From Botryllus schlosseri (lineage: Eukaryota): a DNA stretch of 64,000 nt. Location: positions 20,772,001 through 20,836,000 of the forward strand of contig CM119371.1 in the NCBI GenBank assembly GCA_051294905.1. Direction: 5' to 3'. This document shows, piece by piece, positions 1,284 through 54,836 of the stretch. A program made the position numbers and the translations under genes. Within the stretch, counting starts at the first letter, position 1. Every line of letters starts with the position of its first letter. The notes under the pieces are model-generated. The model did no database searches, was not told where the DNA came from, and was given only the letters and a program-made list of their open reading frames with translations.

Positions 1284-1483
1284 ATATTAAAAAGGAATTT
1301 CTAGTATCTGTTGATGCATTTCTGAGTGCAACGATTAGTCCTCTCGATCGATTGAAGCCAAAGTTCACGAATGACCGCCATCCGATTAGGATACGTGATT
1401 TATATAAACTGATGATACTATGTGACAATAAATTCGAGAACTCCATGGCGGATGGACGTATTGAAGAAAAAGACATTAAAGAC
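1284..1483 (+). CDS. Exon A (200 nt): (D)IKKEFLVSVDAFLSATISPLDRLKPKFTNDRHPIRIRDLYKLMILCDNKFENSMADGRIEEKDIKD
   Basis: Acceptor ctccttttag, donor gac|gtaaga, open frame. Resembles the end of the atlastin/GBP G domain (EF...L..P..L.PK..NG..I...DL). Confidence 0.8.
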
Positions 1484-1983
1484 GTAAGAAAAATATGCTC
1501 TTGCTATTTTAGTACTTAATGACTTCGCTTCTGCCGAATTGTAGCACGGCCTAATTCAGTGGTTCCCAACTTGGGGTCGACGAAACCACTAAATTTGCAA
1601 CGTGATCAATAATCAATTTGGTATTTTACCATCTCTAGGGTAGAAAATTATGATGTTTTGATCTATATGATATGAAACAGTTTGGCTGGAACTGAAACGT
1701 GAGCACCAACATCAGTAAAACCCCGTTTGTGATAAAATATACTGCTAGACAAGCTCATTTTAATTGCATGTAATCTATTAAACTATTAGAGCATAATATC
1801 CCGCCAGGTGAGATCACAGATTTGAATGGAAGCTGTCAGCTGTAACAATATCATACGGCGAATGTAGTCAGAACGCCGGTAAATTTTAAAATGAAACAAA
1901 ATTACGACATATCGCATCTAAACTGCTAAAACGACGCTGCTAAATACTATTGAGTGGATGTTATACTTGAGATAATATTACAG

Positions 1984-2052
1984 GGGGAAGACCGAGTGGC
2001 ATATGAAAGAAAGTACGAACAGCTGTATGAAGAATTCGTTGACACGATCCAG
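1984..2052 (+). CDS. Exon B (69 nt): GEDRVAYERKYEQLYEEFVDTIQ
   Basis: Acceptor attacag, donor cag|gtaggt, phase 0/0, helical peptide. Confidence 0.8.
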
Positions 2053-5000
2053 GTAGGTATATACTATTTTGTATAAAGTCAAAAAGAATAAGAATGAAAA
2101 AGCAAAATTCGAAAAAAATTACCAGGAACCATATACTGAACCACCTCCATATGCTTTCCTGGCTTCAACATTTAGTTGCATGGTATTGTCATTACACGCA
2201 AAGAGAAAGTGAACGAAAGCTTCTGGAAACGAAATACACAAGCAAATACACGATTAAGCTGGACTGAACGTGTATATCTATCTGATATTATAATAGGAAT
2301 ATGGATAGAAAAATATTCAATATTTTTTCAAAGAAGATGACTAACACGCACGCCAATGAATTCCTATAAACGTTTTTTTTTCTTTTTTGGAGGCTGTCAA
2401 ATGATTGAGTGGATTGTTGGTTATTGGGATTATTATCACAAATCTTTCAAAATAATAGATAGACCAGAATAAAAATAAGGTAGGGGATAATAAATCTAAT
2501 ACTGTAATCCAAATTGCTTACCATTAATTATACCAAGGGCGTTTTTTTTTAATATGTCATGATTTTGTCGAAATTGTAGCGTTAGGTCAAGAAAGTGTCA
2601 AAATTCTGTACAAATTCAAAATTGTTTTGCAACCTATATTTCGTTTTTTCGTATATGTTTGCGTTGTCTGTGAACTTATAATTCGCCATTTTACATGCTG
2701 CAGCCTTCTTATAGGCCTACCGTTGTAAACGACCCATTATCCGCTCATTGTGATGGATAAACGGCCAAATGAAACAAATTGTTGGATATGGTGATATGCT
2801 GTCGCAATATCTTAACTGAAGGAAGACCGCGTGGGCAGTCGTTATAATCAGGGATGGTGTGAACGTGACATTCACGTTCGCGTTCTGTGTGTGAACCTCA
2901 CAAATTAAGAGGTTCACGATCACAGAAGCAGCTTGGTATGTGCATTGCAAACCGTTTTCATATATTACCAGTTATTACGTCATTATTATATCTATAATTT
3001 AAATTATTTGCAATCCAACTTCAGACCACTCTATGCAAGTATAAAAAAATCAACACTAAACGAGCACCTTACCCCACACCTTACCAATCCCAAAATTTTA
3101 CTTGCTGTGTTACAAAATTTTGCTCGAAATATTCATCTTCCCGGTTGTGAATATTTATCAAATGTCTAAGGTGAGCATGACCCGAAATCACATGGCATCA
3201 AGAACGAAATACAGTAAAGATCAGTAGTCAGCGAATTATACTTATTCAGCCGATCACAGAAATTGATATATAAAAAATACGTCATCTAATGCAAAAAATC
3301 AAGCAGGCGTTCTGATTCCATCAGCTCAATACCAATGTCACAATAGTCAGGCACCGAATTCAATACATTGTCTGGTCTGGCTTCTACCGTTAAGGCGTTA
3401 GCTTACATTCCCTTGCAAATTCTCGTCGGAATTGTTGGCAAAGAGACGGAAGATAATAATTTTATGAAAGTCAGCATGTACTTCAGTATTGTGGCATAAT
3501 GTAACTTGAGTCGTCGCTAGGTATGTCTGTTTACAATAACACATCTGTTCACTGACATGTGTGGTTGAAATTAGCAATGTGACGTCACCTGTCGTCATAA
3601 GGTTCACGTTTGCATTCACAAGCAACCTTTCAACAATTATCCAGGTTCACACGGGGGTTCGCACCGTCCATAGTTATTATATCAGGAAGCTCATGATGAG
3701 AAATTGTGATGTATAAAACATCGTCACAATCAAGCAACACGGTGTGTTAACAGCAGTGTGAGCACAACTTCAGTGTTATCAGCCAACATCTGCTTCTGGT
3801 ACACGTTCTTTCTCCATTCTGAATAAGGACAGACACTTTTTACCCGAGAATGTAGGAAAGTATCTTTCGCCGCACTGCTATTACTTTTAATTATTTTTAT
3901 CATAATGAGATTGTAACGAATGTAATTCTTCGTAGGTCTGGATTTCGTTTAAGGCGACTACCAAGTCCCAAACCTAACTTTCAGTACTATACCCCCATCA
4001 CCATGAAATTTTCACAGTCGCTATATGTCGCTATGCTATATGCAAAAAACAAGAAAAATCTCACCTTCAGATTGAGGATTTGAATGAGAAAAAATGGCAC
4101 CGACACGGGAATGTATATCTCAAAATTCTGCAGTCCTCTTTTCAATAGAGCGCCTTCTTTTGGAAGTACTAGGACAGTGCCATGTTGTGGTAAAATTTGA
4201 AGGAGTATGTCCAACCCCTCTGGGTAAATTTTATTTCGAGATTTCAAAGATTCAAATTTCAGGTAATTTTTTCAAAAAGTTTGCCTTGAAGCTCTGTAAT
4301 TCAGCGCAAGGTAGATCTAGGCCAAATGACGCTTAGCATAACATAGGTCTCGATGTTAGCTTATCAATAAAACCTGACTGATTACTATACGATATATATG
4401 TCATATAAATTTTTGATTTACCATGAGGCTGTTCGACAAAATTTTACAATAGAGAAAAACGATAATAAACATTTTACCAGTAATAGAAGAGTAATAGCAA
4501 GTAAGTTAGAAGACTAAGAAGAGTAGAAGAGCAATAGAAGTTTTTAGTTATGTTTTGTATAAGATAAGATACTATGTTGATATTTCAAACCAGGAAAAAA
4601 TTGAAAATTTTAATATTTTTTCTAACTTGTCCCCTCAATTAATTCTGACGATTCGAGTTTGATATGGTGTGGGAGGATTTTATGGAGTACTGAAATTCAC
4701 GTCGCTTGCCTCTGCAAGTTCTTTTTGTTCGCTTATTTTAAAACTGCACTACTTCCTAATTGGCGAGGAAGCTTTTAAACCATTCCATTTGACTACGTGA
4801 AATTGACACTTGGTGGACACATGACGATGCATTCTTCCTTCTTGTCTGAACTGGCTGCCATGAGGACGCAGAAATAAAACTGTCTAAAAACTATTGTGAA
4901 TCTCTTTACATCGACTATATTAGGAGGTCTTTCACACTTCCACCTATTAAATTGTTGTCGAAATGATGATTCACATTTTAAAGTGAAGGATATTTCTTTA

Positions 5001-5717
5001 TTGCACGTAAGTGATCGTTACAAGTTGATGAAACCAGCATATTTAAAGTGATATTCTAACAAAATGCGATAGGTGGAGACGTAGCCAAGGTTTAATTTTC
5101 CCCGAATCATATACTATTAGATATGGCATTAGCAAAGCACGGAGATTTCAGCCGCATTTCTGTAACAATAGAGGGCACGATAATCAAGGAGACGAACGTC
5201 AAGATTAAATTAAGCCTATAGGACAGTGGTTCCCAACTTTTTGTCATCATTCCCCATATCAGATGTATTCCGAGCCGTCCTTCCTTACTACCCAATTTAT
5301 TTTAGTTTATTATGAAGCAGGTTGTATGAGTGCACAAGACACACAACCCACCAGTGCGCAAGAAAGTCGCCTATTATTGCAACATGAAACATATGTGATG
5401 AACCGATACTTGTTACACTCAAAATTTAGCGAAAGCGTGATTTCACGTCATACAGGTCATGCTCCATGCGTTTGTGAAGCCATGATTGGTTATCCAGTCT
5501 TAAAAATGCGTTTTTGTGAACAAGGCGCAAACTAATTCTCGATACATACAGTCCAGAGCAGTTAACTGGTAATGGTATTTGCGTATGTGTCTCCGTAAAT
5601 ATGTAGACTGTCCTGTATGTAATGTGCCCTGTAATAAATGTGTCTATTCCCCCCAAGAAACCGTTGAATTTCCCACCGTTTGGGAACTGGTATAGTTTAT
5701 ATGTCTGCATATCATAG

Positions 5718-5921
5718 CACATGGATGCTGAATCTTCAATCGCAATCGAGGGTCGTTGCGTTGAATTGTTGAGACAAAAACTCCAACAATTCTGTGAAGA
5801 CGTATCGAAGTGGAATGTCAATGAAGTGGGAAGGCAATATGAATCGAAATACAAAGAAAGACTTACTGTTCAAATGGAAAATGCTACAGCGAGACGAGTC
5901 TTGAAATGGATGAGCCAACAG
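5718..5921 (+). CDS. Exon C (204 nt): HMDAESSIAIEGRCVELLRQKLQQFCEDVSKWNVNEVGRQYESKYKERLTVQMENATARRVLKWMSQQ
   Basis: Acceptor atcatag, donor cag|gtattt, phase 0/0. Overlaps ORF 5721..5936. Resembles atlastin middle-domain helices 2-3. Confidence 0.8.
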
Positions 5922-5988
5922 GTATTTATAGTGTAGAGACTCAATTTACCCCCACACTAATTCTAGTCACAGACTCCTCTTAATAATT

Positions 5989-7372
5989 ACGATGGTCAAC
6001 AAAATAAAAAATATGTATTTTTTGTAGAACATCCAAGGGCTATTTCTGTTTTTTTCGAGGATGCTGATTACAAATATTTCATAAGTTTAGCCAGATTGGC
6101 TTTTGTTCGGGAGATATGTATGCCTTTAAAAAGTCCAAAATTACCCTGTTTATCCCTGAATATTTTACATGAAATGAATAAAATCGTTGTTTTTTCTTTA
6201 AATTTTACACTGCGCATAAATAGATAATTGATCATGAAGAACACTCATGTCGTTCTCAGTCATAGTATCATTATTAACCTAACCTGGTGCCAAATATTTT
6301 TCGTAAAAAAAAACAGTACTTCTGCGCAACGGAAACACATATTCTCCTGTATCAATTTGTCATTCTACCAAGATTAAAGAGGATAAAAAAAGCTATAAAA
6401 TATGTCCTTGAAAGGCTTAACTACAATACTCATTTGCGTCTCATTTCTTTCGACTTGTAAATGGATAATATTCCACTGAGTCAACAAAGTGAGTATGCCT
6501 ATACTATCCCTATCAAACGAGAAGCTTACATCTGGTATATTTGATAGATTTAAGATTCGAATATGGATGAATGATTTCAATTTCATAAAAGGAAGGAGTT
6601 CACTGCATGGAATTTATCCTTAGGTGTAGTGAATGATATTTTTAGATGATCACAAAGCACCCAACTACAAACAGTTGGTCCGAAAATTTTTATCTGCATA
6701 TGGAAAGCTTAAAACAAACATGAGCATAAATGTTCACTTCCTGTTCAGTCATCTTGATATATTTCCTGATGATCTTGTTGATTAGCAAGGGGAGAGCTAC
6801 CAACAAGACATCAAAACAACAAAAGAAAAATTTTAGGGCATATGAGATGAACATATTATGGCAGACCATTACTCGAACATTTCAAGAAACTCCACCAAAT
6901 TGCAACTAGCGAAAATCGTACAAAAACAAATTTGCTTTTAAATAAATGAATCATATTATATTCCAGTTGAATATTTCAAATTTACAATAGTTTGTTGATG
7001 TCAAACTGTGTCAAACCATGTTATTTGACTATCTAGAAAAATACTCATATATATGACCGGAGTTATTTACGTACATGATATCCGTGAAAGTCTATAACTG
7101 TGATAAACCCAATACCACTTAATATAGTGCTGTTGGTGTATTTTGATTTAAAAGAGTCTTCTGTGAGTAAATAACAAGTATATTGAATTCCTAAACTTTA
7201 TAGTACGACTGAGCCAATTTTTACCAAGCCATTGCAGCAAAAATTGGAGATTTTGGTCATCTCCAAAACAAGAGCCAATTTGAAAAATCGAAGGCCATAA
7301 TTGGATTTAGTGCCCGTCAGAACCCCCAAAACCACTCTTACTTTATCCGCCTAAAATATGTGTTGATCAGTG
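5989..7372 (+). mobile_element. Decayed Chapaev3-type DNA transposon
   Basis: About 6500-6880 translates, with stops and frameshifts, to LSNEKLTSGIF..., AW..., HKAPNYKQLV...NMSINVHFLFSHLDIFPDDLVD*QGESYQQDI...IMADHY. This matches the Chapaev3 transposase C-terminus. Ends are ...tggtcaaca and tgttgatcagtg. Confidence 0.8.
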
Positions 7373-8484
7373 TTATCACGCTTGCGGGATCCTCAATCTC
7401 CGGAAAATACCCAAAATCAGAGATTCCCAAGATTTCTCTTCATTCCCCACTTCTGGTTAATTCAAGGTACTCGTGTCCCGTTACCGCCTACTCCTCAATT
7501 CAACCCTTAAAATTTTTCGCTACCATAAGAGTGGCTGGGATTTTATATAGTAGGCTAATGCCTTGATATTGATGCAAATTAAGACGTTCATATATTGATA
7601 GTCAAGACCCGTGTATTCAATGATTGCGGCACTTTCTGATAAGTTATCAGATCAAACGGCATTCCGGCATTTCGTCGTAATTTCTTTTAATTTTAGTCAC
7701 CAAGTTTTATCACAATTAAAGTTCAACAGCGTGATGTGCCGGATGTAATGGAAAAACTATTATGCATATTCGAGTGCAGCCAATATCTCTGGGACACCTG
7801 ACAGAAGATATGTAGGCTACAATATCCTTCTACTGCAACGTGAAATTTCTTGTGCAACGGTATCCTGAAAACTTCTGCTAAACCGTTAAAGCACGTCATG
7901 CTGCTCGTGCTAAACGTGTTTGTGACTCTAGTATTGGTTTTCCAGAATTCATAATGAGTTTTTTGGATACAGGACAGAGCAATCACCTGGTAACTGTGCA
8001 TCCGTACACCTTTATATACTGTAGCCTATGTAATTATTTTGCAACTACGTCCGTTCTCCATCTGAAAGCTCCGAATTCCCCACCAGTTAGAAACCAATAA
8101 TGCCCTAAATAAAACTAGGTCAAAATATTAAAGAAAGATTCATAAATACTGGCAATCGAGTATTATAGAAGCTATATCCCAGTGTGAGAAGCTGGCGTGA
8201 TTATACCTGCTATGATCGGAATATTGTGGCGTTTATTCTCAAGTATTGGGCAAAATGTTAAGGTGTTATTAAAAAAAACGCTCTAAATCTATCTCTAGTA
8301 TGGTTCTCTCTTTTATTTGCCTCACAAAGAGCCATGCGATGGATTAGATGCATTGCAATGTTATATATGACGCAATGAATTGCAAGCTAGAAGTCCAACA
8401 ACCCGTCAAGTACGACAGTGTCTCAACTATATGTAAATATATTGCTTGATTCATTCACTATCGTTTGAATTTGATGCCCTATCC

Positions 8485-9355
8485 CAGTGGTCGTTCGTCA
8501 GAAGAGCCATGTTGGCCATATATTTTCGATTTTAACTCCCAAAGAGCCATATATGTCAATCAATTGTTGCGTCACAATTGTAAATTCGTGACGTCATTGC
8601 AGTACTAATTCGAACTCACTACATGAGATTCGTCGTGGGCGCCGTATTTTATCTGTAAAAACTAGCAGGCTACTAATTATCCTGTAATAGCGCAACTCAA
8701 CGTAAATAGCTCAGAATTTATAATACCTGATATTCATCTAAACTATAGCACTGAATCCAAAAATTTAAATATTGATCGACTTCTCAATTCTCAAAGTATT
8801 CGGCGTCAACATGGATGTTGCACTACACGTCTGCATATTAACGGCAGTAGTAGAACGCTACTTCACAATCAAGAACGTAGATAGTAATTTGAATTTGTAA
8901 TAGGAATGTCACTTTCAACTTCTAAAGCATTTCTTTTCTCGGTGTAGATCAGGAAGACAATGTGAATTTTGAAACTTGATTGTCATATAGTCGTCTATAT
9001 GTATGCTATTCTTTTTCGTCAATAGTATGGTGCTATCCAAGATTATGCGGTGCGCGACGTCGGATACATCGATTTCGCGAGAGGTATCGGTCGCTGGCGC
9101 TACACCAACTTAAATTTGAGGATATTGTAAATCGGTCCGAACCCTTAGACCCGGTATAGGCCACTGGCCTGACCTATCAAACACATGTTTATGCTGCCAC
9201 GAGAATATTTATTTTGGTCGTTATGAAAATGTACTAACAAGTTGCTGCAATATTGATTAAATTAGGTTCAAAATAAATAAAAAAGTCAAAGAGCCATATC
9301 TTGTACCAAAAAGTGCTATATATATGGCTCGCGAGCCATAGGTTCCCGACCACTG
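8485..9355. mobile_element. Non-autonomous hAT (Charlie/Buster-like) element
   Basis: TIRs cagtggtcg / cgaccactg. TSD ccctatcc / ccttatcc. GAGCCAT subterminal motifs. Reverse-orientation relative at 18778-20374. Confidence 0.85.
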
Positions 9356-10206
9356 CCTTATCCCATTTCACGAATGCCCAGGCGAGACCGCCGAAAACTA
9401 CATTTTTACTGGGTCATGATTTCAGGCTATTGATTTCGTTAAAATCGTCAACACGGAGTTTTGCACATCTACGATGTTTGGGTTATGGTATTTGACTTTT
9501 TGATAGACTAACTAAATTAGCTCCGCATTGCGGTATTTGCTTGCTGCTTACCGTAAAAAATGCCATTTTCGGGGGTCCCACCAGGTCTTTCGTGATATGG
9601 GGAAGTACCGATTTTTACAGCTCTGCGGAAGCTGGCAGCGAAATGCTGCCATGTAGGTTTGTAACCTAAAGAACATAAAAGTGTATGTATGCTCGATTGA
9701 ATAGCGCAGAAATGAACGAAACGAGCAGACACGAGGATGTGCAGATCCACCATACCGACTATTCACTAGAAATCTTTATAATATACAGGAGATGCTGGTT
9801 TCGTTGGTTCGCTGTGAAGAATGCCCTCATCAGTCGTAATCTCAAAAACCTACTTAATAGTCGCGGCTCAGTGTTCTTGGCGTCAATATATAGCTGTATA
9901 GAAAGATATCCTTGTTCCATACAGATTAGATCTCAATAGTTTAACCAATGATGCGACATCTTTCACTGGTATATAACTTAACAATATTCAATGTTCGCAG
10001 AACTTTTTCCACGCGATATTGATACGTAAAACATGATATCTAGGTTGATCATAATGCCTCTGGTTATGAAACTTCAGTTTTTATACAGTTTTAAGGGAGC
10101 AAATCAATCATTCTATTCGAATGAGATAATTTGAAATTTCAAGCGTTTTTTTATATCGGTATGGCTATAAACTAAAATTTACATAAACTAACATTATTTT
10201 CACCAG

Positions 10207-10275
10207 GAAATGAAGAAGCAGAGATTGAAAGAAGAGAGTCGTCGTCTACTGGGGGTGTATGTTGCAGATATGAAA
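10207..10275 (+). CDS. Exon D (69 nt): EMKKQRLKEESRRLLGVYVADMK
   Basis: Acceptor ttttcaccag, donor aaa|gtaggt, phase 0/0. Same length as exon B. Confidence 0.75.
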
Positions 10276-10680
10276 GTAGGTATTGGTTTATACCACATAC
10301 CACCAAACCTCAATGGTTACGAACCTATGGTGCAAACAAAATGTAGATATATTATTACTATTATGTTTCGGTTATTCTACTCTCTGTAATAAAACCTTTC
10401 ATGTTGACTACAGAAATTTCTTTCCGACGCCTGGCAGCAATTTCGGGTTTATTAGTAAAGCTTTCAAAGCTAAAAATCAGACCATGCATGTCAATATATA
10501 TCAAAGCTGCAAGAGATCAACAATGTCTGCGGCTTGTGCGATAATAAAATCGCCACAATAAAATATCTCGTGGGAGAGCTCGTCTTTACATAGGCTACAT
10601 AAACCAATGATGTATCATTCGTATTATTTCAAAACACCTTCTACTGACTTTTTTTTGCTTCGGATGCTAATCCTTCCACA

Positions 10681-11210
10681 TTGATGAAAACAGCGCTGCA
10701 CACGGAATTTAGCTCAATTCCAACCAGTAGAAGTAGTTTTCTTGGAGTAGAAAGTTTTGAATATACAATTAAAAAACAAAAAATAAATATTTTAAATTTT
10801 TCTGTCAACCACATAAAATTCTTAGGCTATCAGTAGAGATGATGCATATCAAATTTGGCTCAATTTCAACCCCCAAAAGCGAAGTTGTTGCAGCAGAAAA
10901 ATTTCCAATTCCATGATTTTATATTAAATACCCATATTAAATACTATTTTATTCAATTCCAAATTTTTCTACTGCAATAACTTCGCTTCTAGTGGCCGGA
11001 ATTGAACGAAATTTAGTGTGCATAACCTCTACTGACAGCCTATTAATTTTATGGGGTTGACAGAAAAATTTCGAAAATTAATTTTTTCGTTTTTAATAAT
11101 AAATTCTAAACTTTTTACTGCAAGAAAATTGGTTGTACTAATTGGAAGTGAGCCAAAGCTGGTGTGCAGCGTTATTTTCACCAACCTAACAATTTTATCA
11201 AGTAGCCAGT
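10681..11210. mobile_element. Palindromic (fold-back) non-autonomous element
   Basis: Imperfect inverted arms of about 230 bp (e.g. aaatttttctgtcaacc / ggttgacagaaaaattt; cgctgcacac / gtgtgcagcg). Second copy at 61367-61774. Confidence 0.8.
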
Positions 11211-12599: not shown

Positions 12600-12989
12600 G
12601 TTTAGAACATCTGTCTTTGATTAAAGCATCAAAACGGCCTTTACCGGCTCTAGAAATATACCGTTATATTATAATTGCGATTACAGTTAGACTTATCTCA
12701 GTAAATGATGGTTAAGTATATCTATTTTTGATTGAATTTATTTGCGTAGGTGGTGCATGGACCCATATTTAATATTAATGAAAGCTTGACTAAATCGCGC
12801 GCAGCGCAAAGAAAAGTTTCTAATGCATAAGTCGGTTTAAAAATAATATTGCTATGTTGTTTTACGAAAAAATTCAGAGCCTACTCCAAGCCTTAAAAAT
12901 TCCGGACATTTAAGCATATTTTAGAATTGAAAAAACAAAAACATTTGTGGCGGTTGCAAAAGCTTCCAAACGTCCATCATGCTGTTGTT

Positions 12990-13790
12990 TTGTATCGTAA
13001 TAATTGGTAATAACGTCTAGATAAGCGATAGCGGCTTATAGTTCATTACTTTTTATAAATCTGTCAAAAAAGCTTTGAAACGCAGCAATTCCATTAGCGA
13101 TTTCAAAGGGAAGCCTGCAAAATTGATATAGACGACCGCAACCTTCGAATGCAGTAAAAGGCTTATCATTACTTCCAAGAGGTATCTGATGGTAAACGGA
13201 CTTCAAATCTATCGCACTGTACCATTTAGCTCGAGCTACATATTATACAACGTTTTCAATATTCGGAAGCGGATAAGCATCTAGTGTATTATAGCGGTTG
13301 ATGATTATTTGAGAGTAATCAACGACCAATCTCTTCTTATGTCTGGAGTCCTTCACCACCAACACCTGAGCTCTCCACGGAGACGAGGGAGGTGTGATCA
13401 CTTCAAATTCTATGAGGTTCGAAACTTCGTCACGTATGAACTCCTTGTCATCATAACCGTAGTTTGTAGACTTGGTAGCCAAGGGCTTCATGTTTCCATC
13501 TACAAACCGCATAATACATGGCGTCTCGTTCACTTTAGTAGCTATCACATTACTAGCATCGGTTTCTGCTGCTCTGTTAGCGCCCCCGTTAGCGCTTGCA
13601 TTCGCGACCATCCAATCGCCACCGCCTCTTGCTCTGCCACTGTTTATGGTTATATCTCCATCGCAACTGAATTCAAAAACAGCTCTTTTATGCTTTTCGA
13701 ATAAAATATGGCCTAGAGCCAAATCGCAACAATGATCGTCGAGATCGCCGAACCGAACAAACTTCGACATTCAATTACCCAAATTCACAA
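12990..13790 (-). mobile_element. Degenerate Ty3/gypsy pol fragment (end of protease plus RT N-terminal half)
   Basis: SSPWRAQVLVVKD...KKRLVVDYSQ..N....LDAYPLPNIE, then a stop, then WYSAIDLKSVYHQIPL...FTAF...LYQFCRLPF..., and YLDV after a frameshift. Confidence 0.9.
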
Positions 13791-14182: not shown

Positions 14183-14353
14183 ACCTGCGATACCGTGAGC
14201 AAACTGAAATTCGAACACGATAAAATCCTCTCGAAAATACGCAACACCGAAACGGAATACGATGAGGTCGAGCTGATTCATCTCGTCGATGCTAAATATA
14301 AGCAGATGAAACAGAATATTATGGAAGAAAAACAAAACGAGCAAAGGATTACG
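14183..14353 (+). CDS. Exon E (171 nt): TCDTVSKLKFEHDKILSKIRNTETEYDEVELIHLVDAKYKQMKQNIMEEKQNEQRIT
   Basis: Acceptor attttacag, donor acg|gtaaca, phase 0/0. Lies inside ORF 14162..14371. Confidence 0.8.
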
Positions 14354-24775: not shown

Positions 24776-24880
24776 GATTTACGAAAAGAAATGATTGACT
24801 GGATTGTGAACAAACACAAGATGAGCCTTCCACCTCTATGGATCGAATTGATGAATGATAAAGCAAATAGCAAAAATAAG
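24776..24880 (+). CDS. Exon F (105 nt): DLRKEMIDWIVNKHKMSLPPLWIELMNDKANSKNK
   Basis: Acceptor ttttacatcag, strong donor aag|gtaagc, phase 0/0. Confidence 0.75.
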
Positions 24881-31600: not shown

Positions 31601-31831
31601 GAAACTAAGTTTCTTACCTTGGAAGAGAATGATATGGATGCTATTTACGTTATCGCGGGAAGTAAAGTCCTTGGCAGTTATTGGGATTGCGTCCTTCAAG
31701 ACATCGAAAAATCGAACATAGAAAAACTGAATGAGAAATTGTGGACCGAATTGATGAAAAGCGTAAAAAGTCGGGCCCCGAAAAAATGTCTTCCACTGCA
31801 CCTGTCGGGTACACCCAACGTCTTTTTCAAA
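31601..31831 (+). CDS. Exon G (231 nt): ETKFLTLEENDMDAIYVIAGSKVLGSYWDCVLQDIEKSNIEKLNEKLWTELMKSVKSRAPKKCLPLHLSGTPNVFFK
   Basis: Acceptor cttttcgtgcag, donor aaa|gtaagt, phase 0/0. A weaker in-frame donor agc|gtaaaa at 31762 is also possible. Confidence 0.75.
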
Positions 31832-38834: not shown

Positions 38835-38921
38835 GAAGAATATACTGCTATGATCAATCGTGCTGTTGATGAATTCTGGAAAATATTCGCTGAGGATGGA
38901 CCGGCCCATCGATCTGAAGAT
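38835..38921 (+). CDS. Exon H (87 nt): EEYTAMINRAVDEFWKIFAEDGPAHRSED
   Basis: Acceptor tttaaaacag, donor gat|gtaggt, phase 0/0. Confidence 0.7.
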
Positions 38922-43664: not shown

Positions 43665-45924
43665 GGTATTGGGGCCCCATAGGGTGGTCAGTTTTCAAGT
43701 TGATGAGTGAATTTCGTCAATAATATTGGTAATTGCATTATCTTGCTATTCATTCAGATTTACCGGTAGAGCTGGGGGCAAGTAATTCATAATTATAGCA
43801 TCTGGTATGTTGTTTTAATTTCATTATTGTATGTTGTTAATTCGTGACCTCCCGTCTTTTATATAATCAAAAGATACTGTAGTCGCCCAAACGTAGCAGA
43901 CTAAAAGAAAAACTTTCGTGAGACGCACACACAAATTGCCATATCTTCATTCCTCTGTGAGTGCCCCGGCCGGGTGGCATTTGCATTGTTGCGGCTCAGA
44001 TTGGAAGGACCGGACTATTCGTCACGCCCACAGAGCGCGGCTACTGACAATGGACACATACCCAACTTTTGGGCAAGGTCATTCTTGGGTAGCACACTTT
44101 GTGGAGTTGAATGTTGGCCGAAATTGCTTACGTCTTTTGGTGTGTCGTGGCGGGGTAATGACCGCCACCGAAATGCCTATTCCTATAAATTATGCATGCT
44201 TTTTTCTTGAGGGGGAGAGGTATGCATTTCAAAATCAAGCTATTTAGAGACATTAAATCCCGAAGCTCGAAGAAAATTTACAAGTTAAGAAACTCTCTTG
44301 AAAAATCGTTGATTTACAAAATACTTTAGAGTCCCCTTAGAGCTCGCTCCCGGTCCTATTGGGGAGTCTGGGGTGTGGCAGTTACGGACCTGGCAAGAAT
44401 GCAAATCGTTGGGTGCGACGAATAGTCCTGCATAGAGGTGGGCAAGGGGTGCATTATGACGTAACAAGCAAATGACGTATGACTGATAAAGAAAGTTGTT
44501 ATCTCATTAGACCTTTTTCATCGCAAGCCAAATTTATATTGTCTTCCAATATCTCTTCTGAAATTAGTTCTAAGAAGTAAAACAAATGTAATCGGGAGTA
44601 ATCGTGATTACTTTTGAAAAGTAATCGTAATCGTAATCGACTACTTCCTGATTTGGCTGTAATCGTAATCGTAATCGTAATCGCGGGATTCGCAAGTAAT
44701 CGTAATCGCAATCGATTACATTCGTGAAGTAATCACCCCATGTCTGATCTGAATCCTTCGGCGGTTGGGCACCTTGATACAGTCTCTGTAGCAGATTTGT
44801 CGTGAATCATCAGCTTCCTTAGAAGTTGTTTCACATTGACAAGGGGTTCTGCTGTACCCTAGCCCTATTAATATTACCCCTTATTCCAATCGAAATAGGT
44901 GCCAACTGCCAATTGTCGGTAAAGCCATTACGAACATAAGATGCGCAGGATATTTTTCAAGAATGAATGCCGTCAAATAGGCACCCATAATGATTAATCA
45001 GTAGGCCTCACGCAACGTTGTCAATTGCTAGCACCAGTTCCCAGTACAAGTATTTGATCCATAAACTTCAAGACCAGGTAGCGCAAAGAAGGAAAGAAAA
45101 CGGTGGTGCATCAGCGACATCGGAACATTGAATATATCTCTGTTTCGTGCCCAATAAGCTTACTCGCTTTTAATGATGACACTTCGATTCTATATGCTGT
45201 ATTATTTACTGCAACAAAATATGTGAATTTGGTTTTGTCGGTGTATCTCGTGGAGAAGATGTAAAAAAAACAAGATATATATTTAATCAGGCTATACTGA
45301 AATTATTGGGCCTTGTTTCGCCGCATCCTATTTGAACGATACCAACCCAATCCAGTTGTGAATTGTAATATCATTACTGATTTAGTTTAAAATCCACCAT
45401 AGGCATCTTGTTTTAGTTACAGATAAAATATGTTGCGAATAGTGAGCTCACAATACCGAACCTCCAGTTAGCTAATCAGATTTGATCGTCAGATTTTTTT
45501 TTACAATTTTTAAATTTCGCGTATAGATCAATATGTCGTTCTCGTGAATTGAATATTTCGATTTGAGGTTAAAGAAAGTGTAATGCTGTCACCCTAACTA
45601 AACTTCAAACAACGCTTCACTATAGTATACCTATGTATAGTATGTTTCGCATGGTATGGCTGGAGGCCGCGTGTTGATTTTGTTGAGTTAGGGAGTTGGC
45701 TCAGAGTGCGGCAGAAGATAGATGGGAGTGATTGTGAAGTAGGCCTATTAGTAGTCGGGAGCAGCAGCATGAAGTACTGGTGGTATCAGGCAGTTAAGGA
45801 GTGAAGTAGTGGTAGTTGGCTTTGTATTTACAGGCTGGAGTTGGATGTACCTGTCGGAATCTCCGTGAGGACAGTTGGATTGGCCACGGGCTGGCCACTG
45901 ACGATGCTACTCGACCATCTGGGG

Positions 45925-46949
45925 CAGGGCCGGACAAAATGCCCTCGCGGGCCGCGGGCAGCTTCTCGCCTTACATGATAATGTGGCCCGCCGACGATCA
46001 GTCTGCCGAGATTCCCTACTACTTGATTACTACATCAAATTTTAGTGACTGTATATTAATATATTCGTGTGTGCGCACTGTACAGCATGCGAGAGTGAAG
46101 CTTCCTGGTAAGTTCGTCGAAGCGAGAAGGGGCGAAGCGACAGTTAACTTAGATTTTTTTCGCGCTCCACGCGATTTACCTTAGGCTCATGGTCTTTACG
46201 CTATCTATGGTCCGAATTTCAGATTTAAGAATTCTCTCATCAATAGCCATAACCTTTAATACCATCCAACTATCCGTTGGGATGGTTAGCATTCTGATTC
46301 GCCTCATTAATATTTGTGATATCACGATAAGTGGGCGCGGAATTTTTCACTATCAAAAGGGGGGTGGCGTGTTAAAAAAAACCGACAAGATAGCGTAATG
46401 GTTAAGCGTCCGGCATTCTGATCGGTAGGTCGTGGGTTCGATTCCCGGCCGGGTCAGACCAAAGACCTAATTAGTAACACTGGTACCCAAGGCTTCCCTG
46501 CTTGGCGCTCATGCATTACTGGGATAGCATGGAGGGGTGGTGCATGACTTGGAAAGCCGTAAAGGCTATATCTGCACTTCCTTGTCCAGCGGCATATGCA
46601 CTTTATGCACTCATGGTATGCATATGCGCAGATCGTGTGTATGTGTATCGTGAGTCGGTGTATATGCCGCAATAACATCAAGGCCAAAAATAAACTACGT
46701 CCTTCCTTCCAGTTGGAGAACCACATGACAATGCTGTTCTCAAATACACATTTTCTTCGTCATGGTCGGCGAGAAATTGCTTTTAAATAACACTGCTTCG
46801 TTAAAATACTATCATTAAATACGATTCATACCATGTATAATGTATATGTGAAGAAATGGGCAAATAATGTATCGATTCAGCAATCCGGCCCGCGAAGTAC
46901 TTAATTTTCTTATATCCGGCCCGCCGACTGGAGAAGTTGCCCGCCCCTG
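45925..46949. mobile_element. Non-autonomous hAT (Charlie-like) element containing a SINE
   Basis: Ends cagggccggacaa / ttgcccgcccctg. TSD atctgggg / atctaggg. Confidence 0.75.
46384..46560 (+). mobile_element. tRNA-derived SINE, probably MetaSINE superfamily
   Basis: A box tagcgtaatgg (46391) and B box ggttcgattcc (46435). Followed by gggtcagaccaaagac...tggtacc...cttccctgcttggcgctc, which resembles the Meta central domain as I recall it. Confidence 0.75.
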
Positions 46950-47738
46950 ATCTAGGGCATGGGCGGCACATTTCTCCGGTAAGCGGGCTTGATATGGGGA
47001 AATAAAGTATTTGGCGAGCCAGATTACAGACTCGATTCAATATTCGCTTATTCCTCAACCTTACAAGGAATAAATCGTGTTCATTGTAAACTTTAAGTTT
47101 AAGGCATAGAGATTAAAACAGTATTTAATGAATTTATTAACGTAAGATAAATCAATAGCTGTTGAGGTCAATCAGACACCTGTGGTCGATCAAAGTTTTA
47201 AGCAGGTTCCGGGAACTCAGAATTCATGTCCGATGTAAAACCCGTCTTGACGAAAAAAAGTATATTTTCCAGTCCTACTTCCGAATGACCCGCCCGACCG
47301 ATAGCATTAAAGGTTTCGCGTCATTTGTGGGGTTTGTTAGTTCAGCATGGCCATTTGCCTGGCTGTCAAAGCTGTAAATGAGGAATAATTTCCAAATAGG
47401 ATGACATTTAAGCGTCATCGGAGGACATTTTCGATTTCCCGGAAAAGTAGGACAAATGGCAACCCAAACCATAATGAGAACATGAGTTTAGTGTGAATGG
47501 CCCTTTCGAGTATTGTGCCACGGAATATAATCTAATATATAACCGTATAGATTTGTGTTGTTTTGAGTTTCGTTTGCGAGTGCCACGAGTTGGGAAAAGA
47601 CGAGATCCTGAGCCCACAAGCATGTCCGTGTTCCGTTATTGCATCGTACGCCATTTCAATTATTGTTGACCTATTTAATGATGATGTTGGGTTACGGTGG
47701 TTATACTGATCATAAATACTTGCATATGCTTATTACAG

Positions 47739-47909
47739 ATAACTACTCATCCGGATCTTATCTGGGTAAATTACCTGGAAAAAATTGAGTCAGTGAACAT
47801 CACATTTCTGAATGGGATATGTCCCGCTCTAATGGACGGATATCGTGAGCTTGAAGTGATCCTGAAAAATTCGAAAGAGGAAATGGCCGCGATGCGGAAA
47901 AGTAGTCGG
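47739..47909 (+). CDS. Exon I (171 nt): ITTHPDLIWVNYLEKIESVNITFLNGICPALMDGYRELEVILKNSKEEMAAMRKSSR
   Basis: Acceptor ttattacag, donor cgg|gtattc, phase 0/0. Same length as exon E. Confidence 0.7.
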
Positions 47910-48596
47910 GTATTCGCCTAACCTAAGCTTCTTATATTGGTTATAATATCCATATTTTAGGTTGTGTCAACTGAGTGGCATTTAAACATCGTGAAAGCTC
48001 CTTTATGTAACAGAAGTATGGTTCATTTTGTTTGCAAAGAGACAAATAACCGTGGAGTGACGGAAACTAACTTGCTTCAAGTGACACATTGACATTTTCT
48101 ACCTGAACTATCGTCGAGACAATTACCACAACCTTACCCCAACCTAAATTCATCACTGGTCCCAATTTATAGTGTGTGGACTAGTTTTTCATTGGTGAAA
48201 GTATCATTGTGATTTTTAAGTGAAAATATAGAATTAGCGTAATAAACATAATTACAGTGTGCTCTGAATGGAACCTTTCTTTATTGTTGACCAAGAAACA
48301 AAATAGAAACAGTATTACCGGATGAGGTAGCCTACACGACAACGAGACGTCACTTGAGACGATCAAAACTGGGACTTTATATCCTGTCTCTTTTATATCT
48401 TCTTTAATTTTGTATTATTTATTATATAATGATGATGTCTCGGCTACATCGGTGATTTCACGCGGATATTGTTTATTATGATTGCTGATATGCCGACTTG
48501 TTGCACAGAACACTTACGTTCCACGGTTTTCTTAACCATTGCTTTCATAAATAAGAGTATGGTCGACGCATAAATAAACTTCCAACGCTTTGGTAG

Positions 48597-48680
48597 TGCG
48601 AGGAATAGCGTAGTGGTATGATCCACAGCTGCAACACCAAACGGTTTCGGATTCGAATCCGACCGAGGTCGACTCCAGAA
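48597..48680 (+). mobile_element. Truncated tRNA-derived SINE head
   Basis: A box tagcgtagtgg and B-box-like ggattcgaatcc. No closable cloverleaf. Followed by a hAT-like end (cagtgacgtgtggt). Confidence 0.5.
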
Positions 48681-49659
48681 TTCCTACCTAAGCAGTGACG
48701 TGTGGTAGGGTCGTGGCTGGTAAGGCAGTGACCCCTTTAGAGACAGATTAACAAATATATAAACTCAGAATGGTTGCTGATCCAGTTGGAGACATCTTCC
48801 TTATCACATTAGCATGCTTTACACGAAGACTGCTTAAGAAGCTACTTATTGTACGTATCCATAATTGTAGGTCAGGCATATATATGGATGGAAAATACAT
48901 AACAGCTACACGTCAATGAATTGGCCCTGGAATGCATGTTGTCCGTGGCAATCTCGCGATTACCGGGGTTTGCGAAGTGGATACCGCATTGTTTCACTAC
49001 GCAGCGATTTCGGATTGTTAGCAAACGATGGGTTACAAGGCAAATACATATGTCACTCGCCTAGTCATGTTTATTTGCATTGTCATTGCAATTAACAAAA
49101 TCAAAGCTGAGTCACACATTTTCTAGCGATTTGCGGGGTTCTGGTGTTCTGACGTTAATATGAGATATGCACATTGCGCAGTCGCAGGTGTGACTTGGCC
49201 CTTCTGTGATTCACTTTTGCTGCACTACTCGTGCAATACTTTTCAACAATAAATTAGCAAACCATCCAACGTAAAATGTTTAAAATTCAGTCATTCATAT
49301 ATATCGATAGAAAATACCTATATTTATTTATATTATTTTATTAAAGATTTCACAATTCTATTTTGGTCATCTTGCGCACGTCACTGTACCTGACTGTTGG
49401 AGGATTATCTAGGCTTCAGCCTGCCATCTAATTCGCACAAACACTGTCTCATAGAAATAAAGTTCTCGAGATGGGCCGTGTTTTAAGTTGGCAGATATGG
49501 AATCAGAATGAAGAAAGTCGGCCCGGTCAAAAGTAAATGACCATTGTAGCCGAAAAAATATGAAAACCGCAAACAAAAACGAAACCAACAAAAACGATAT
49601 GGTAGGAATTGGGGGCCTCTCCTGGTCGGATTCGAACACGCAACAGTGGCATGGCATGA

Positions 49660-50200
49660 TATGGTATCATAGTGTCCTATATGGAGTAGATCAAAGGCAA
49701 ATTTGCGGCCATTTTTACCGGCTTGCGAAGCAATAAATTCAGTCAAACGGGTATCAATGGAAAGCTGCTGCTGTACTTATTTCGAACTTTTTTTTCTGTT
49801 CATGATCCTGGAACCCCAAAATCATCCTATAAATTTACATTGTGATCGAGTTTGGTCATTGTGACATGAAAATTCTGCGTGGCAAAACGAAAGTGAGTCT
49901 AAGAAAAAAGCGGCGGGCAGTCTTGTTGCGTCACAATGTAAAAACTCGATCACATGCAAATTTTCGACGCAGATTTCAGGGGGTTCTTGGACCATGGACA
50001 AAATAAAATTTATATTTTTCTAATCAGTACAGCAGCAGCTGTCCATTGATACCCGTTTTGTTTTATTGAATTTAGTGCTCGGCAATCCGGTCAAAAATTG
50101 CCGTTATTTTCCTTCGCTCAAATAAAAAGCATGACGTAATCCAATGCAGTGATCCGTTCAGTCTCGCCGTGTCCACACCATATATGACACTATGATGGTA
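49660..50200. mobile_element. Fold-back (long inverted repeat) element
   Basis: aaacgggtatcaatgga.agctgctgctgtact / agtacagcagcagct.tccattgatacccgttt; atcatagtgtc.tatatgg / ccatata.gacactatgat. Confidence 0.8.
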
Positions 50201-51104
50201 TGGTATGGGAAGAAATTTCGGCATGGAATATTGGAATGTGCAAGTATGGTAGAGTAGGGAAATTTCCAAGTATGATAGGGATATTGTGTTCCGTGCCTTA
50301 GTTTTGCAGTTCTGCCAGAACCATGAAAATGACCAAACTTTTGAATTTGCAAATCGATTGCATGCCTTGTCTCGACTCGAGCCAAGTCGAGTCATCAAAA
50401 AAGCACAACTCGAGTCATTAAATGCCTGGTGGTAATCATCACATTTCGAACCATGACACACGCAACCGGATTACCCATTTTTTTCATCGCGCTAAAGGCT
50501 ACAACGCGCGCACTGATGCAGTTGAATTAGGATAAAAAACAGGATTTTGTACGAACTAAGAGTTTGTGGGTGAAATTGATCCTAAGACGCGGATAGACAG
50601 AAGCCCTGGCATCATATAACAGCAATATCAGATTATATTACAATGACGTCACGGCATCAGATGACGTGGTTGTTATTGATTTCTCGTTTTTTGAAGTCGA
50701 TTCATGATTATATCGCAGCGTTTTCAAGTCGCTGAATGTATGATTCCGTGGCCAATTGATGATTTCCATGTCGGCATACGCGAAGGGAAAATATCAAAGT
50801 TATTTACCCTGCACATACCTACGTAACGAGTAGTATTACCTCTCCTACCTCTACCGAGTACAAACCTACTATTTTGCATTAACTGTGGTTAAAAATTGAA
50901 ACATATTTCGGAGCATATTTAGACAGAAAGTTGTATCAGATGTACAGATGTACAGATGTACACCGTGATTTACAATTGCGACACATCTGCAAATCGAATT
51001 TGAACCAAGGTTAATACTGAAGAATAAAGTGCATCATTTGGATATACATTACAGTATATAAATCGAAAATTTCAAGCATTCACTAACATTATCGACTTTT
51101 ACAG

Positions 51105-51176
51105 GAAGACATGGAGAAAAAACTCACTCTGTTCATGACGCACATTGTGATAACTATACATGAGGAATTCCAAAAA
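51105..51176 (+). CDS. Exon J (72 nt): EDMEKKLTLFMTHIVITIHEEFQK
   Basis: Acceptor cttttacag, donor aaa|gtgagg, phase 0/0. Confidence 0.75.
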
Positions 51177-51586
51177 GTGAGGAAATTTAAGTTAAGAATC
51201 AATACATTTTATTTGCTCTATTGATTTCCGGAATGAGACTTATACCTCTCTATCCACGACATCGATGTCTAACGCATATCACAGTTGTTCTCAGATGTTT
51301 TAGACACGCCTCATGAATGTTAGTGAAGAATTTCGCGTCATCGTATTGTGATATTAAAAAATATTAGGAGGAACAACCAGAATATTTGTAATTTCAACGT
51401 ATAATTTGATGGCATGGACGGTTATCACGGTTAGGAGACCTCTCAAAGATGAAAATTAGACTATAAGAGCAATAATTATTGCCTAATTATAATTACAATA
51501 TTTGAGCAAAAACTGTCGGTTGAATATTTTTTTAATATTTCAATATATTTTTCGATATTTTTCAAATGCAACGACGGTACGTAGAA

Positions 51587-52826
51587 CAGAGGTCTCAAAC
51601 ACGCGGCCCCCGGGCCGCATGCGGCCGGCGAGATCATTCTGTGCGGCCCGCGACGGCATTTTGAAATTTCAAGTATTCATCAAAATATTCAAGTGCTATA
51701 TATCCTTTTTAGATACAAGAACCTAATGTTCACCCTAAAACTATGCTATAAAAATCACTGAAATCTCAACAAACACTATCACATCACTTTTAAAAGTGAC
51801 CATGCAGTAGAAGATCAGAGCTATTACGTCACATTTCTAGTTCATGATGAAAAAACATGACCCGTTGTTGATTTCTGACTGAAAATTGTGATTTGGTTTG
51901 GTTGGACCTTTCGTTAAATTATAATCTATTTCGGATTAACTGGGTGAATAAATAAAAACGACTCGAGTTGAGTCGGGTCAAGCGTTAAAATTAGAGAAGT
52001 ACTTGCGACTCGCAACGGGGACTTGGTAATCCTATGAACGCTACAATCTATGAAACTGTCATGGGGAATATATAGTATTACAGCAAAAGGTCGTAGCTTG
52101 CGTTGCGTAGGTTATATAGATAGCTATCTAATCAAGCCAGCCTGGCAACCATCGGCATTCTGTGACCCCCCGTGACGCATAGTTGGTTACATGCTGGGTG
52201 TTTTCGTTCTCTTTATCTATGTTATTATCGGTGGCGAGTAAGGTAATAGTACGCTCTACAGTTGTAACACCAATGCATTCTTTGGCTATTGAGCATTTCT
52301 GTTCCAGGGGTTCTTAACCAGGGTCCGTAGAGCCCATCTGGGTACGAAGAACCACATCAGGGGGTACGAGATGCATTGTGGAATTAGGCCGATATGCTGT
52401 GGAATGTTATCTCTACGAATTTATTCTGATATCAGATCAATCGTTAGTAGATTTAAAAATATTCTACGTAAAATCGTGGCACGTCAAAGGTCCAATAGCT
52501 GCAATATCATAACCCGACAGTTTTACGATGTCATAATCAATCGTCTCGCATGGTGTCTATAACTCATTATTTTAACAAATTATGCCCGGCACAAAAACAA
52601 TTTGATCCGAAAATTTGAAAGTGTGATTTTCTCCGTATCAAGCATGAATAGTACAATAGTGAATTCCATTTCCACGATGTTTGTGGAATGCTTGTCTGCA
52701 AGATCCCGTTAAACAAGGCCTACCTGGAAATCATACATTGAATATCCGTATTATTGATGCTGCGGCCCGCGGCGTCATCAGAAGTAGGAAATTGGCCCGC
52801 GAGCACATTTGAGTTTGAGACCTCTG
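51587..52826. mobile_element. Non-autonomous hAT element, reverse copy of 26009-27572 without the nested MITE
   Basis: TIRs cagaggtctcaaac / gtttgagacctctg. TSD acgtagaa / acgtaaaa. Confidence 0.9.
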
Positions 52827-54542
52827 ACGTAAAATATGTTTATTTGTGGTATTCATGGTGTTTGTCGACTACTATGGTCAATTTTTCATCCAAGCCAGGC
52901 CGATATTCCTCATTCTTATTCCGCTCCGTAACTGCAGACCTGTAGCACGGCCAACCTCTAAGCCGTATGTAAGACACCGCTTACGCGAATAAGATGGCGA
53001 GGAGGACCCTAGATATATACTTAAAATGCTTTCAACCCATGGTGCGGGCCGCACGAATTTCAGGCCTGGTACTTGTTACGAGAAAAACATACTCGGGTCG
53101 CAGGTGTTTGGTCACAGAATATTCCAGTTGACTACTTCTGGCCTGCAATAACATGCGCTTCTTAAGAGTGGAAGTATACAAATTGTGTCTTGATTGGGTC
53201 TACTCGTAGCGGCTACGTCGACTTTCTAAGCCACGTCGATTTAAACTATTGCTTCTTAGATTCATAAGGCACATTATTCATGGCAGATGACATGACCTTC
53301 TAAGTTAATATCCTATTTCTCCGTGACTCTGAGTCTTTCTCGACAGACAGACCATAAAAGCATCAGCGAACCCCCAAACGCAGTCACCAGCTAATCCAAA
53401 TTCAGAGACCTTATTTTATCGATGCAAGGTCCGGTATCAGCCACAATGTAACGTCAGTGTACGGATGGTACGACGCTACTATGACTACCGATGACCAGTT
53501 AATTTGAGTAAATAACCAAAATTGCATCTATGAATGTCATCAATGCACATCCTGCCACGGGTTAATTTGTGCGTGGTGCTTTGAATACTCGTTGGTAAAT
53601 GAAAAAAATGCTCTCCTGTTTATTTTGTCTGTGTTTAAAAATTACCGTCTTTCCATCGTAGGCTTATGCATCGCCTAGGCCTACTTGGTTGTATCAGCAA
53701 ATTACTGCTACGCAGTGTTTAGTTGAAGCACGTTCTATTGTGGCGAACGGAGTCTAGTCTGACAAATTTCTAATCTTAGGAGAATGTGCTATAAATAGGA
53801 ATATATAGGATATTATAGTTTTCAATATATCGGAAAGAATAGCATTATATAGCACACCTATCGCTCAAACTGATTCCGACAATATACTGTAAATTAGTCA
53901 TGCCAGTGGAACCCTCTAAAATTACCCTAATATACCAAAAACTACATTTTCATGTGTATTCATTTCGGCTAGGGTACCCGTAATAAAAAAAATCTAGTGA
54001 CAATAAATATTGCGAAGCTCGAAAAAAATAACATATGTTGAATAAATCTGCCTCATTCTCAGCGAAGTCTCGTGTATCATGCCATTACCGGTCATCACAG
54101 CTTTAGATATTGCCGTATTGTTTGATCGCACCTAATCTTGTCTTCATAGAAACACGTTGGTACTCCACTGATAACAGCATTGTAGTTTGAGGTCCACTGC
54201 CGGTACCAACATGGAGCAGTCTGCCTTGTTCACTTTTCAATTCCAAACCTTAGCTACATTGTACATAATCAAATTTTGAGACTTGTTGATACGTCAGCAC
54301 AGTACTAATCTCAAACGGTACGCGAGTAACAAAGTTTAGAAATCACCATCGCAGATACTTCAGGAGGTTGCGATATCTCAATAATTACTATTGTAATCTA
54401 CTTTCATGATACTTCTATATTTGAATTTCGTAACGGCGTACTTAACTATATGCTGCCTCTTGTCGAAGTACCAATAGGTAACATTTTCGACAGGTTACTT
54501 CTCAATTTACTCTCACAAATTTACCGGATTTTGTCAATTAAG

Positions 54543-54836
54543 GTTATGGTGGACCGTCATTACAATCCTGTCCAGCTCAAGGCAAAGTACATGCAGCGTG
54601 TGAATCGCGGGTTCAACAACATGTATGATGATGTCATAGGCTTCGGAAGTAAGGCGCAGATAAAAGAGTTGATTTATGAAAGAGCGATGGTGGAACAAAC
54701 TCTGGAGAATATTCTGCAAGAAAATGAAAGAAATGAAGATGTAATCGATAATTTCCAGGAAAACATCGATTTAGGGGACAGTATTTTCACGAAGATTTCA
54801 GAATTCTTCACATCTTTATTCCAGCGCAATGACTAA
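54543..54836 (+). CDS. Terminal exon K: VMVDRHYNPVQLKAKYMQRV...DSIFTKISEFFTSLFQRND*
   Basis: Acceptor ttttgtcaattaag, in frame with ORF 54450..54836, ends in TAA. HYNPVQLKAKY resembles the atlastin middle-domain turn (FLAPNDLQTKH). Confidence 0.8.
   Translation, partial: VMVDRHYNPVQLKAKYMQRVNRGFNNMYDDVIGFGSKAQIKELIYERAMVEQTLENILQENERNEDVIDNFQENIDLGDSIFTKISEFFTSLFQRND

Follow-up and report, generated by a model that had tools for sequence, protein, structure and literature searches.

Can the stalk of an atlastin-type GTPase grow by the repetition of a pair of exons? The question is raised by a 64-kb stretch of the genome of the tunicate Botryllus schlosseri (C1:20772001-20836000, where C1 is contig CM119371.1 of the 495-Mb assembly GCA_051294905.1), which is referred to here as the window. 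In the window, an exon encoding the end of a G domain (exon A) is followed by ten exons (e1 to e10) that alternate between short and long. The answer that is favored here, and that is considered rather probable, is that the gene encodes a large GTPase derived from atlastin that lacks a membrane anchor, that its five-bundle stalk arose by serial duplication of a two-exon cassette, and that the product is a soluble tether or coat that can be recruited to membranes. The proposed protein would consist of an atlastin-type G domain, an atlastin three-helix bundle (e1+e2), four further units (e3+e4, e5+e6, e7+e8, and e9+e10), and a short amphipathic helix.

The gene and its tandem relatives

A preliminary description of the window listed exon A and ten exons of 69/204, 69/171, 105/231, 87/171, and 72/294 nucleotides (nt), separated by phase-0 introns and forming a single open frame. 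Exons were placed by scanning for stop-free AG...GT (or GC) intervals of these lengths, followed by inspection. All of them were recovered exactly on the + strand, which also encodes the peptides quoted in that description. The introns between exon A and e10 are GT-AG in 10 of 10 cases and in phase 0 in 10 of 10, and the AG/GT borders and the spliced translation agree with the open frame that was described. The intron preceding exon A is in phase 1, with one Asp codon shared between exon A and the exon before it; all others are in phase 0. For 5+5 exons, the odds of strict alternation between short and long are 1 in 252 by simple arithmetic, a figure to be read with the fact that the size classes, like the helix-end test described below, were picked after the data were seen.

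The same description predicted a GBP/atlastin-type G domain upstream of the window, and such a domain is present. A Pfam GBP search of the genome gives a match 17.5 kb upstream of the window and four similar matches about 200 kb apart on the same contig. In 40 kb of upstream DNA, 125 of the 164 + strand open reading frames (ORFs) of at least 45 amino acids (aa) were scanned (those of segments L010-L012; the 39 ORFs of L009 were left out). Two of these match Pfam GBP, at profile positions 2-44 (E 1.7e-5) and 75-126 (E 8e-9). The switch I exon, a small exon, and the exon containing the RD motif were added from comparison with paralogs and from reading of the DNA. The G domain is thereby made up of five exons located 3-25 kb upstream of the window together with exon A. 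Spliced by coordinates, the 16 exons give one stop-free frame of 819 aa with the C-terminus FQRND. In this predicted protein the catalytic motifs are intact: the P-loop GPAREGKS, the switch I Thr, DTEG (DxxG), and LVRD (RD).

A length of 69 nt for the small exon, Gx3b, was rejected. It adds six residues that are absent from all homologs, and the sequence concerned is a polypyrimidine tract with CAG at its end. Gx3b is probably 51 nt long and the protein 813 aa. The tract (L012:6654-6671; window -3346..-3329) precedes the CAG acceptor and translates to a seemingly conserved peptide in all three of the paralogs that were compared; the homologs indicate that it is intron.

Exons e2 and e10 each match exactly five sites on C1, one per G-domain match, which indicates a tandem set of five paralogs on the + strand (20.55-21.52 Mb), among them the window gene (P2). 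Exon structure was compared in two other paralogs, P1 and P5. Both contain collinear counterparts of all 16 exons, with AG/GT borders and with length differences that are multiples of three, and their spliced open frames are 838 and 828 aa. The tail exons are found at E <= 3e-8 in P1 (10 of 10) and at E <= 2e-5 in P5 (8 of 10). In P5, e3 is weak when taken alone (E 2.9) but is collinear, has AG/GT borders, and keeps its 69 nt, and e7 is tentative (E 6.5; the best AG..GT ORF at the collinear site, 102 versus 87 nt). The e7 of P1 is 93 nt with borders tag / gtaggt and 61% identity. Amino acid identities to P1 and P5, respectively, are 80% and 56-58% for exon A, 100% and 78-82% for e1, 84% and 35% for e4, 85% and 47% for e5, 73% and 38% for e6, 61% and 44% for e8, and 71% and 50% for e9; e3 is 78% identical in P1. 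The ratio of nonsynonymous to synonymous substitutions (dN/dS, Nei-Gojobori) is 0.29-0.43 for P2 versus P1 and 0.26-0.38 for P2 versus P5 across the G domain, both tail halves, the short exons, and the long exons. Because the ratio is well below 1 in the short exons as well, these are coding sequence under purifying selection.

The divergence between P2 and P1 (C1:20550001-20630000) is a mosaic. From the G domain to e5 (window 1-29500) dS is 0.21-0.28 and the introns can be aligned, and for e6-e10 (window 31500-54836) dS is 0.63 and little similarity is left in the introns. The pattern resembles the outcome of gene conversion or of unequal crossing-over among the tandem copies.

It is very improbable that the exons do not form one functional gene and instead represent a pseudogene or parts of separate transcripts. 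In three paralogs the 16 exons can be read through without a stop, dN/dS stays well under 1 for each class of exon, and a protein from a different species can be aligned over the full length (see below). These results stand against two negative findings: a start-codon exon was not located in the upstream DNA, and k-mer protein searches with e10, e2, and the tail of the homolog P0089 returned the query alone, so that those with e10 and e2 yielded no protein of this gene. That this is a real gene, of which the window holds the 3' two-thirds, is well supported.

Family membership and stalk architecture

An exhaustive HMMER search with the P-loop exon (66-residue query) gives 128 matches. The top two, P0001 and P0002, were rejected as relatives since they are long repeat proteins, Thr/Asp-rich or Ala/Thr-rich, whose scores accumulate from many weak matches. 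When the spliced model was compared with the 128 matches by BLASTP, 1 of the 128 aligned from end to end. This protein, P0089 (828 aa; 'uncharacterized protein LOC120343220 [Styela clava]'), aligns over residues 25-826 with residues 11-815 of the model at 23.8% identity (E 3e-46). The remaining proteins align in the G domain and some of them through the first bundle. Related Styela proteins are annotated 'atlastin-1-like' (753 and 812 aa) and 'golgin subfamily A member 6-like protein 22' (839 aa), and further G-domain relatives come from another tunicate, mites, ticks, an ostracod, and a flatworm. Over the full length, the closest relatives are from tunicates, and in a multiple alignment the three Botryllus paralogs and the Styela proteins are collinear to a common C-terminal motif.

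Compared with all PDB sequences, P0089 matches atlastin-1 at E 4e-56 (residues 19-417 versus chain residues 34-429, comprising the G domain and the three-helix bundle) and GBP5 at 2e-10. The range 19-417 corresponds to residues 6-402 of the Botryllus model, that is, through e2. The Styela homologs carry a full-length Pfam GBP domain (E 1e-41 to 1e-45), and Pfam finds only the GBP N-terminal domain; scans of the homologs give GBP and not RHD3 (PF05879). The upstream G-domain exons and the atlastin-1 match of the homolog thus bear out the assignment to atlastin/GBP-type GTPases. The identification of the first exon pair with the atlastin middle domain is supported by the same match and by a profile comparison (hhalign) described below.

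No 19-residue tail window with a Kyte-Doolittle value of at least 1.6 is present in any of six proteins (6 of 6: P1, P2, P5, P0089, P0131, and P0071). Among more distant relatives, P0095 and P0015 have hydrophobic C-terminal windows, and P0111 has two weak C-terminal windows and a hydrophobic N-terminus. Because the atlastin-1 match runs through the bundle and the tail lacks a hydrophobic window, the protein is best read as an atlastin derivative without the membrane hairpin. Membership in the atlastin family and the lack of a membrane anchor are well supported.

The shape of the tail was approached through AlphaFold2 models of two Styela homologs, P0089 and P0131, that are about 24% identical to the Botryllus protein; a 16-sequence alignment was used. 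The predicted local distance difference test score (pLDDT) and predicted template modeling score (pTM) are 77 and 0.53 for P0089 and 81 and 0.52 for P0131. In both models the tail contains helices only, arranged as five runs of three helices and a terminal helix, with a low-confidence loop between runs 3 and 4 that is encoded by e6. The P0089 model alone has an extra short helix after unit 3. When the exon borders are transferred to the models, each short exon corresponds to helix 1 of a run (for e1, this is the P0089 helix at 333-363), and each long exon corresponds to a loop with helices 2 and 3. In P0089, the borders from short to long exons are located 2, 0, 2, 1, and 4 residues from the C-terminal end of a helix; in P0131, these five distances are 5, 1, 2, 0, and 4 residues. 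Among 200,000 random draws, the fractions reaching these border-distance sums are 4e-4 and 1.1e-3, respectively. Of the four long-to-short borders, three fall 21-28 residues into connecting helices that are about 56 residues long. In fold searches, unit 5 of both models and unit 1 match solved three-helix bundles, and the match to GBP1 covers the G domain and two bundles and extends no further. The Botryllus e5 encodes Pro-Pro (residues 519-520), and helix 1 of unit 3 may therefore be kinked in the Botryllus protein.

The tail is thus probably composed of five three-helix units, each encoded by one short and one long exon. The five exon pairs that were first described as five modules map onto the five predicted units of both homolog models, and this five-unit exon-pair architecture is supported by the two predicted structures together with the intron positions. 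It is improbable that the tail has no real modular repeats and is just a generic extension, helical or coiled-coil, in which the alternation and the helix fit would be coincidence combined with an artifact of alignment or prediction. The 5 x 3 helix pattern is seen in both models, which were run separately on different homologs, albeit from one set of 16 sequences. Each of the five short-to-long borders coincides with a helix end (P 4e-4 and 1e-3), units 1 and 5 match solved bundles, and the exon alternation has the odds given above. A generic extension would agree with the lack of sequence similarity between modules, the lack of a Pfam repeat family, and the moderate confidence of models that are those of homologs and in which unit 3 has an extra helix and a long loop.

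The terminal helix (IFTKISEFFTSLFQ) has a hydrophobic moment of 0.66, rank 4 of 481 tail windows. The helix is conserved among the six proteins, with moments of 0.63-0.91. It ranks first among the tail windows in 4 of 6 and is the highest or nearly so in 5 of 6 (rank 4 in the Botryllus protein); its rank in P0071 is 17.

Origin of the exon pairs

The strongest GBP-domain locus of the genome is a canonical atlastin gene (C11:27388516-27396704; L006+L030, 8.2 kb). Its exon homologous to exon A ends at the same position and in phase 0. Helix 1 of its bundle is encoded by a separate 72-nt phase-0 exon (L030:861-932), and the next exon (432 nt) encodes helices 2 and 3 and the transmembrane hairpin. 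Since canonical atlastin splits its bundle in the same way, the short/long pair would be the ancestral encoding, which is repeated five times in the window gene. In this proposal, the stalk was built by repeated duplication of a cassette, namely the two exons for the one bundle of canonical atlastin. Judged from intron positions and predicted structure, cassette duplication is likely and is the explanation that fits best.

The canonical gene and the window gene have introns at the same positions ahead of the exon with the RD motif, where the G domain ends, and within the three-helix bundle; the canonical gene has one more, in the counterpart of the single exon Gx4.

The modules were aligned to a profile of 18 canonical bundles with hhalign. 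Module 1 matches the profile with a probability of 94.7% (E 6e-8), module 2 with 42.4% (E 2.6e-4), and module 3 with 11.2% (E 2.7e-3), and none of 100 column shuffles reaches the score of any of these three. The alignment of module 3 is in the expected register and that of module 2 is within about 8 residues of it; reversed-profile controls give E of about 0.1. Modules 4 and 5 do not match the bundle profile (1.0%, E 0.052, and 1.7%, E 0.03, respectively, with 1 of 100 shuffles reaching the score in each case). The suggestion that module 5, like module 1, aligns with the atlastin middle domain is therefore not upheld by profile comparison.

The main rival to cassette duplication is that the multi-bundle stalk was inherited from an ancestor of GBPs, atlastin, and Sey1p. 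The transmembrane hairpin would then have been lost here and the stalk of canonical atlastin shortened, and the exon rhythm would reflect either a very old repeat or the gain of introns at helix ends. This is unlikely, as the G domain and unit 1 are far nearer to atlastin than to GBP (E 4e-56 versus 2e-10), modules 2 and 3 weakly resemble the atlastin bundle profile (module 3, at least, in the expected register), the tails have no Pfam match to GBP_C or Sey1_3HB, and the bundle of canonical atlastin has the same intron position.

Atlastin-like proteins of other invertebrates do show recent duplication of helical units, as in a mite 'Atlastin-2' (P0111, 827 aa) with a tandem repeat of about 109 residues in its tail (Smith-Waterman score 388 versus 47 +/- 8 for shuffles).

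A number of points weigh against the five-bundle stalk and its origin by duplication. The modules of the window gene do not resemble one another in sequence: the best E in BLASTP of module versus module is 0.2, all 10 pairs of six-sequence module profiles have hhalign probabilities of at most 3.5%, and a split Smith-Waterman comparison of the tail scores 46 versus 40 +/- 5 for shuffles. To this are added the two modules that do not match the bundle profile and the fact that column shuffling is a lenient control for helical sequence. At E <= 10, Pfam gives no family in the tails of three Styela homologs or in the five long exons of the window. GBP_C (PF02841) has no match at that threshold in the same sequences, and Sey1_3HB has no match in the tails in those scans, although this does not prove that the domains are absent. 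The predicted structures are those of homologs with about 24% identity and have a pTM of about 0.5. The borders were transferred by means of a six-sequence alignment that is shallow in the tail (six tail sequences) and uncertain in places. Fold matches to GBP1 and Sey1p reach unit 2 in both models and extend beyond it in one (root-mean-square deviation 23 A), and the reading of units 2-4 as bundles relies on helix lengths and these matches. Introns might favor helix ends for reasons other than duplication. The gene model, which lacks the start exon, is a prediction from genomic sequence and homology, and every functional statement is made by analogy. The five-fold growth by cassette duplication that was originally proposed thus stands in part. 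The exon pairs, the predicted units, and the split bundle of canonical atlastin agree with it, whereas similarity between modules is lacking and modules 4 and 5 are unmatched.

Comparison with known systems and other features of the window

In the proposed mode of action, the G domains would dimerize head to head in a GTP-dependent manner, and the first bundle would serve as a lever, as it does in atlastin. Carried on a rod of about five bundles, the C-terminal amphipathic helix would be available for peripheral binding to membranes. Such a protein would be soluble and would act on recruitment as a tether or coat, comparable to the GBPs or the silkworm protein BmAtlastin-n, and would not be a fusogen resident in the endoplasmic reticulum. 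Dimerization, membrane binding, the biological role, and the history of duplication are points that we infer. Taken by itself, the role of a GTP-driven tether or coat that binds membranes peripherally, possibly in defense, is suggested by analogy and is no better than a tentative proposal.

Atlastin is the textbook fusion GTPase and has a short one-bundle lever, while Sey1p and the GBPs are long-stalked. The window protein differs from the atlastins (ATL1-3 and Drosophila atlastin) in that it has no transmembrane hairpin and has about 400 extra residues, which correspond to four more helical units, and its gene is one of five tandem, fast-evolving paralogs. It differs from Sey1p/RHD3 in its GBP/atlastin-type G domain, in having five predicted units versus four, and in the absence of transmembrane segments. 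Identity to Sey1p is about 13-14% in the structural alignment, and the likeness is probably convergent or very old. Like GBP1/2/5, the window protein is predicted to be a soluble large GTPase with a Pfam GBP N-terminal domain and a helical stalk that starts with two bundles, and the GBPs are likewise multigene, fast-evolving immune families. However, its sequence is much more distant from GBPs (GBP5, E 2e-10), its tail does not match GBP_C, and it does not have a CaaX box. Membrane-binding GBP members carry a C-terminal CaaX isoprenylation motif, and there is no Cys in the last four residues of the model. Many further GBP-domain loci are present in the genome (Pfam GBP search). The description of the protein as unusually long-armed holds in a relative sense, since Sey1p and GBP1 already have multi-bundle stalks.

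The nearest described functional analogue is BmAtlastin-n of Bombyx mori. This atlastin homolog is 770 aa long, combines a G domain with a coiled-coil region, and lacks transmembrane segments; it is cytoplasmic and restricts a baculovirus (PMC4926086). The multi-bundle stalk of Sey1p is described in its structural report (PMC4576867). A literature search gave no paper on such proteins in tunicates, these two reports (BmAtlastin-n, PMC4926086; the Sey1p structure, PMC4576867) being the nearest.

Five paralogs that diverge rapidly within one array would suit a role that is specific to the lineage and possibly immune, and the tandem cluster points to a possible GBP-like defense family. A wider proposal is that a tunicate branch of atlastin lost its anchor, rebuilt a Sey1p-like five-bundle rod by cassette duplication, and expanded into a tandem, GBP-like cluster for cell-autonomous immunity or membrane tethering, whose products are recruited to membranes through the conserved amphipathic helix. 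A long-stalked effector of the dynamin superfamily would then have arisen convergently. As a whole this chain of events is doubtful. If a soluble five-bundle derivative of atlastin does exist, it would provide a natural series on how stalk length and anchoring set function, and it would be a clean example of domain growth through duplication of an exon cassette.

The exons of the gene that lie in the window are listed in Table 1 with the likely polyadenylation signal.

Table 1. Exons of the window gene and likely polyadenylation signal (window positions; unit assignments are transferred from the predicted homolog structures)
Feature	Position	Strand	Length	Predicted content	Borders and remarks
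Exon A	1284..1483	+	200 nt	last part of G domain	ttag / gtaaga; acceptor phase 1, donor phase 0
e1	1984..2052	+	69 nt	helix 1 of unit 1	acag / gtaggt
e2	5718..5921	+	204 nt	helices 2+3 of unit 1 (atlastin-type three-helix bundle)	one genome match per paralog
e3	10207..10275	+	69 nt	helix 1 of unit 2, the distal half of a long connecting helix	ccag / gtaggt
e4	14183..14353	+	171 nt	helices 2+3 of unit 2	acag / gtaaca
e5	24776..24880	+	105 nt	helix 1 of unit 3	tcag / gtaagc
e6	31601..31831	+	231 nt	helices 2+3 of unit 3 and loop	gcag / gtaagt
e7	38835..38921	+	87 nt	helix 1 of unit 4	acag / gtaggt
e8	47739..47909	+	171 nt	helices 2+3 of unit 4	acag / gtattc
e9	51105..51176	+	72 nt	helix 1 of unit 5	acag / gtgagg
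e10	54543..54836	+	294 nt including stop	helices 2+3 of unit 5 and C-terminal amphipathic helix IFTKISEFFTSLFQ	one match per paralog
AATAAA	55046..55051	+		likely polyadenylation signal	about 210 nt 3' of the stop; read from the sequence

The window (GC content 36-42%) is otherwise crowded with stop-to-stop ORF noise and transposon remnants. A reverse-transcriptase fragment is located at 13036-13242 on the - strand (RVT_1, E 1e-7). At 62329-63999 on the + strand, an ORF of 429 aa precedes an endonuclease-like one (Exo_endo_phos, E 6e-4, which is below the Pfam cut-off) that runs off the end of the window, and because of this arrangement the element appears to be similar to a long interspersed nuclear element. 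An upstream intron contains a hAT dimerization domain on the + strand (L011:3720-3977).

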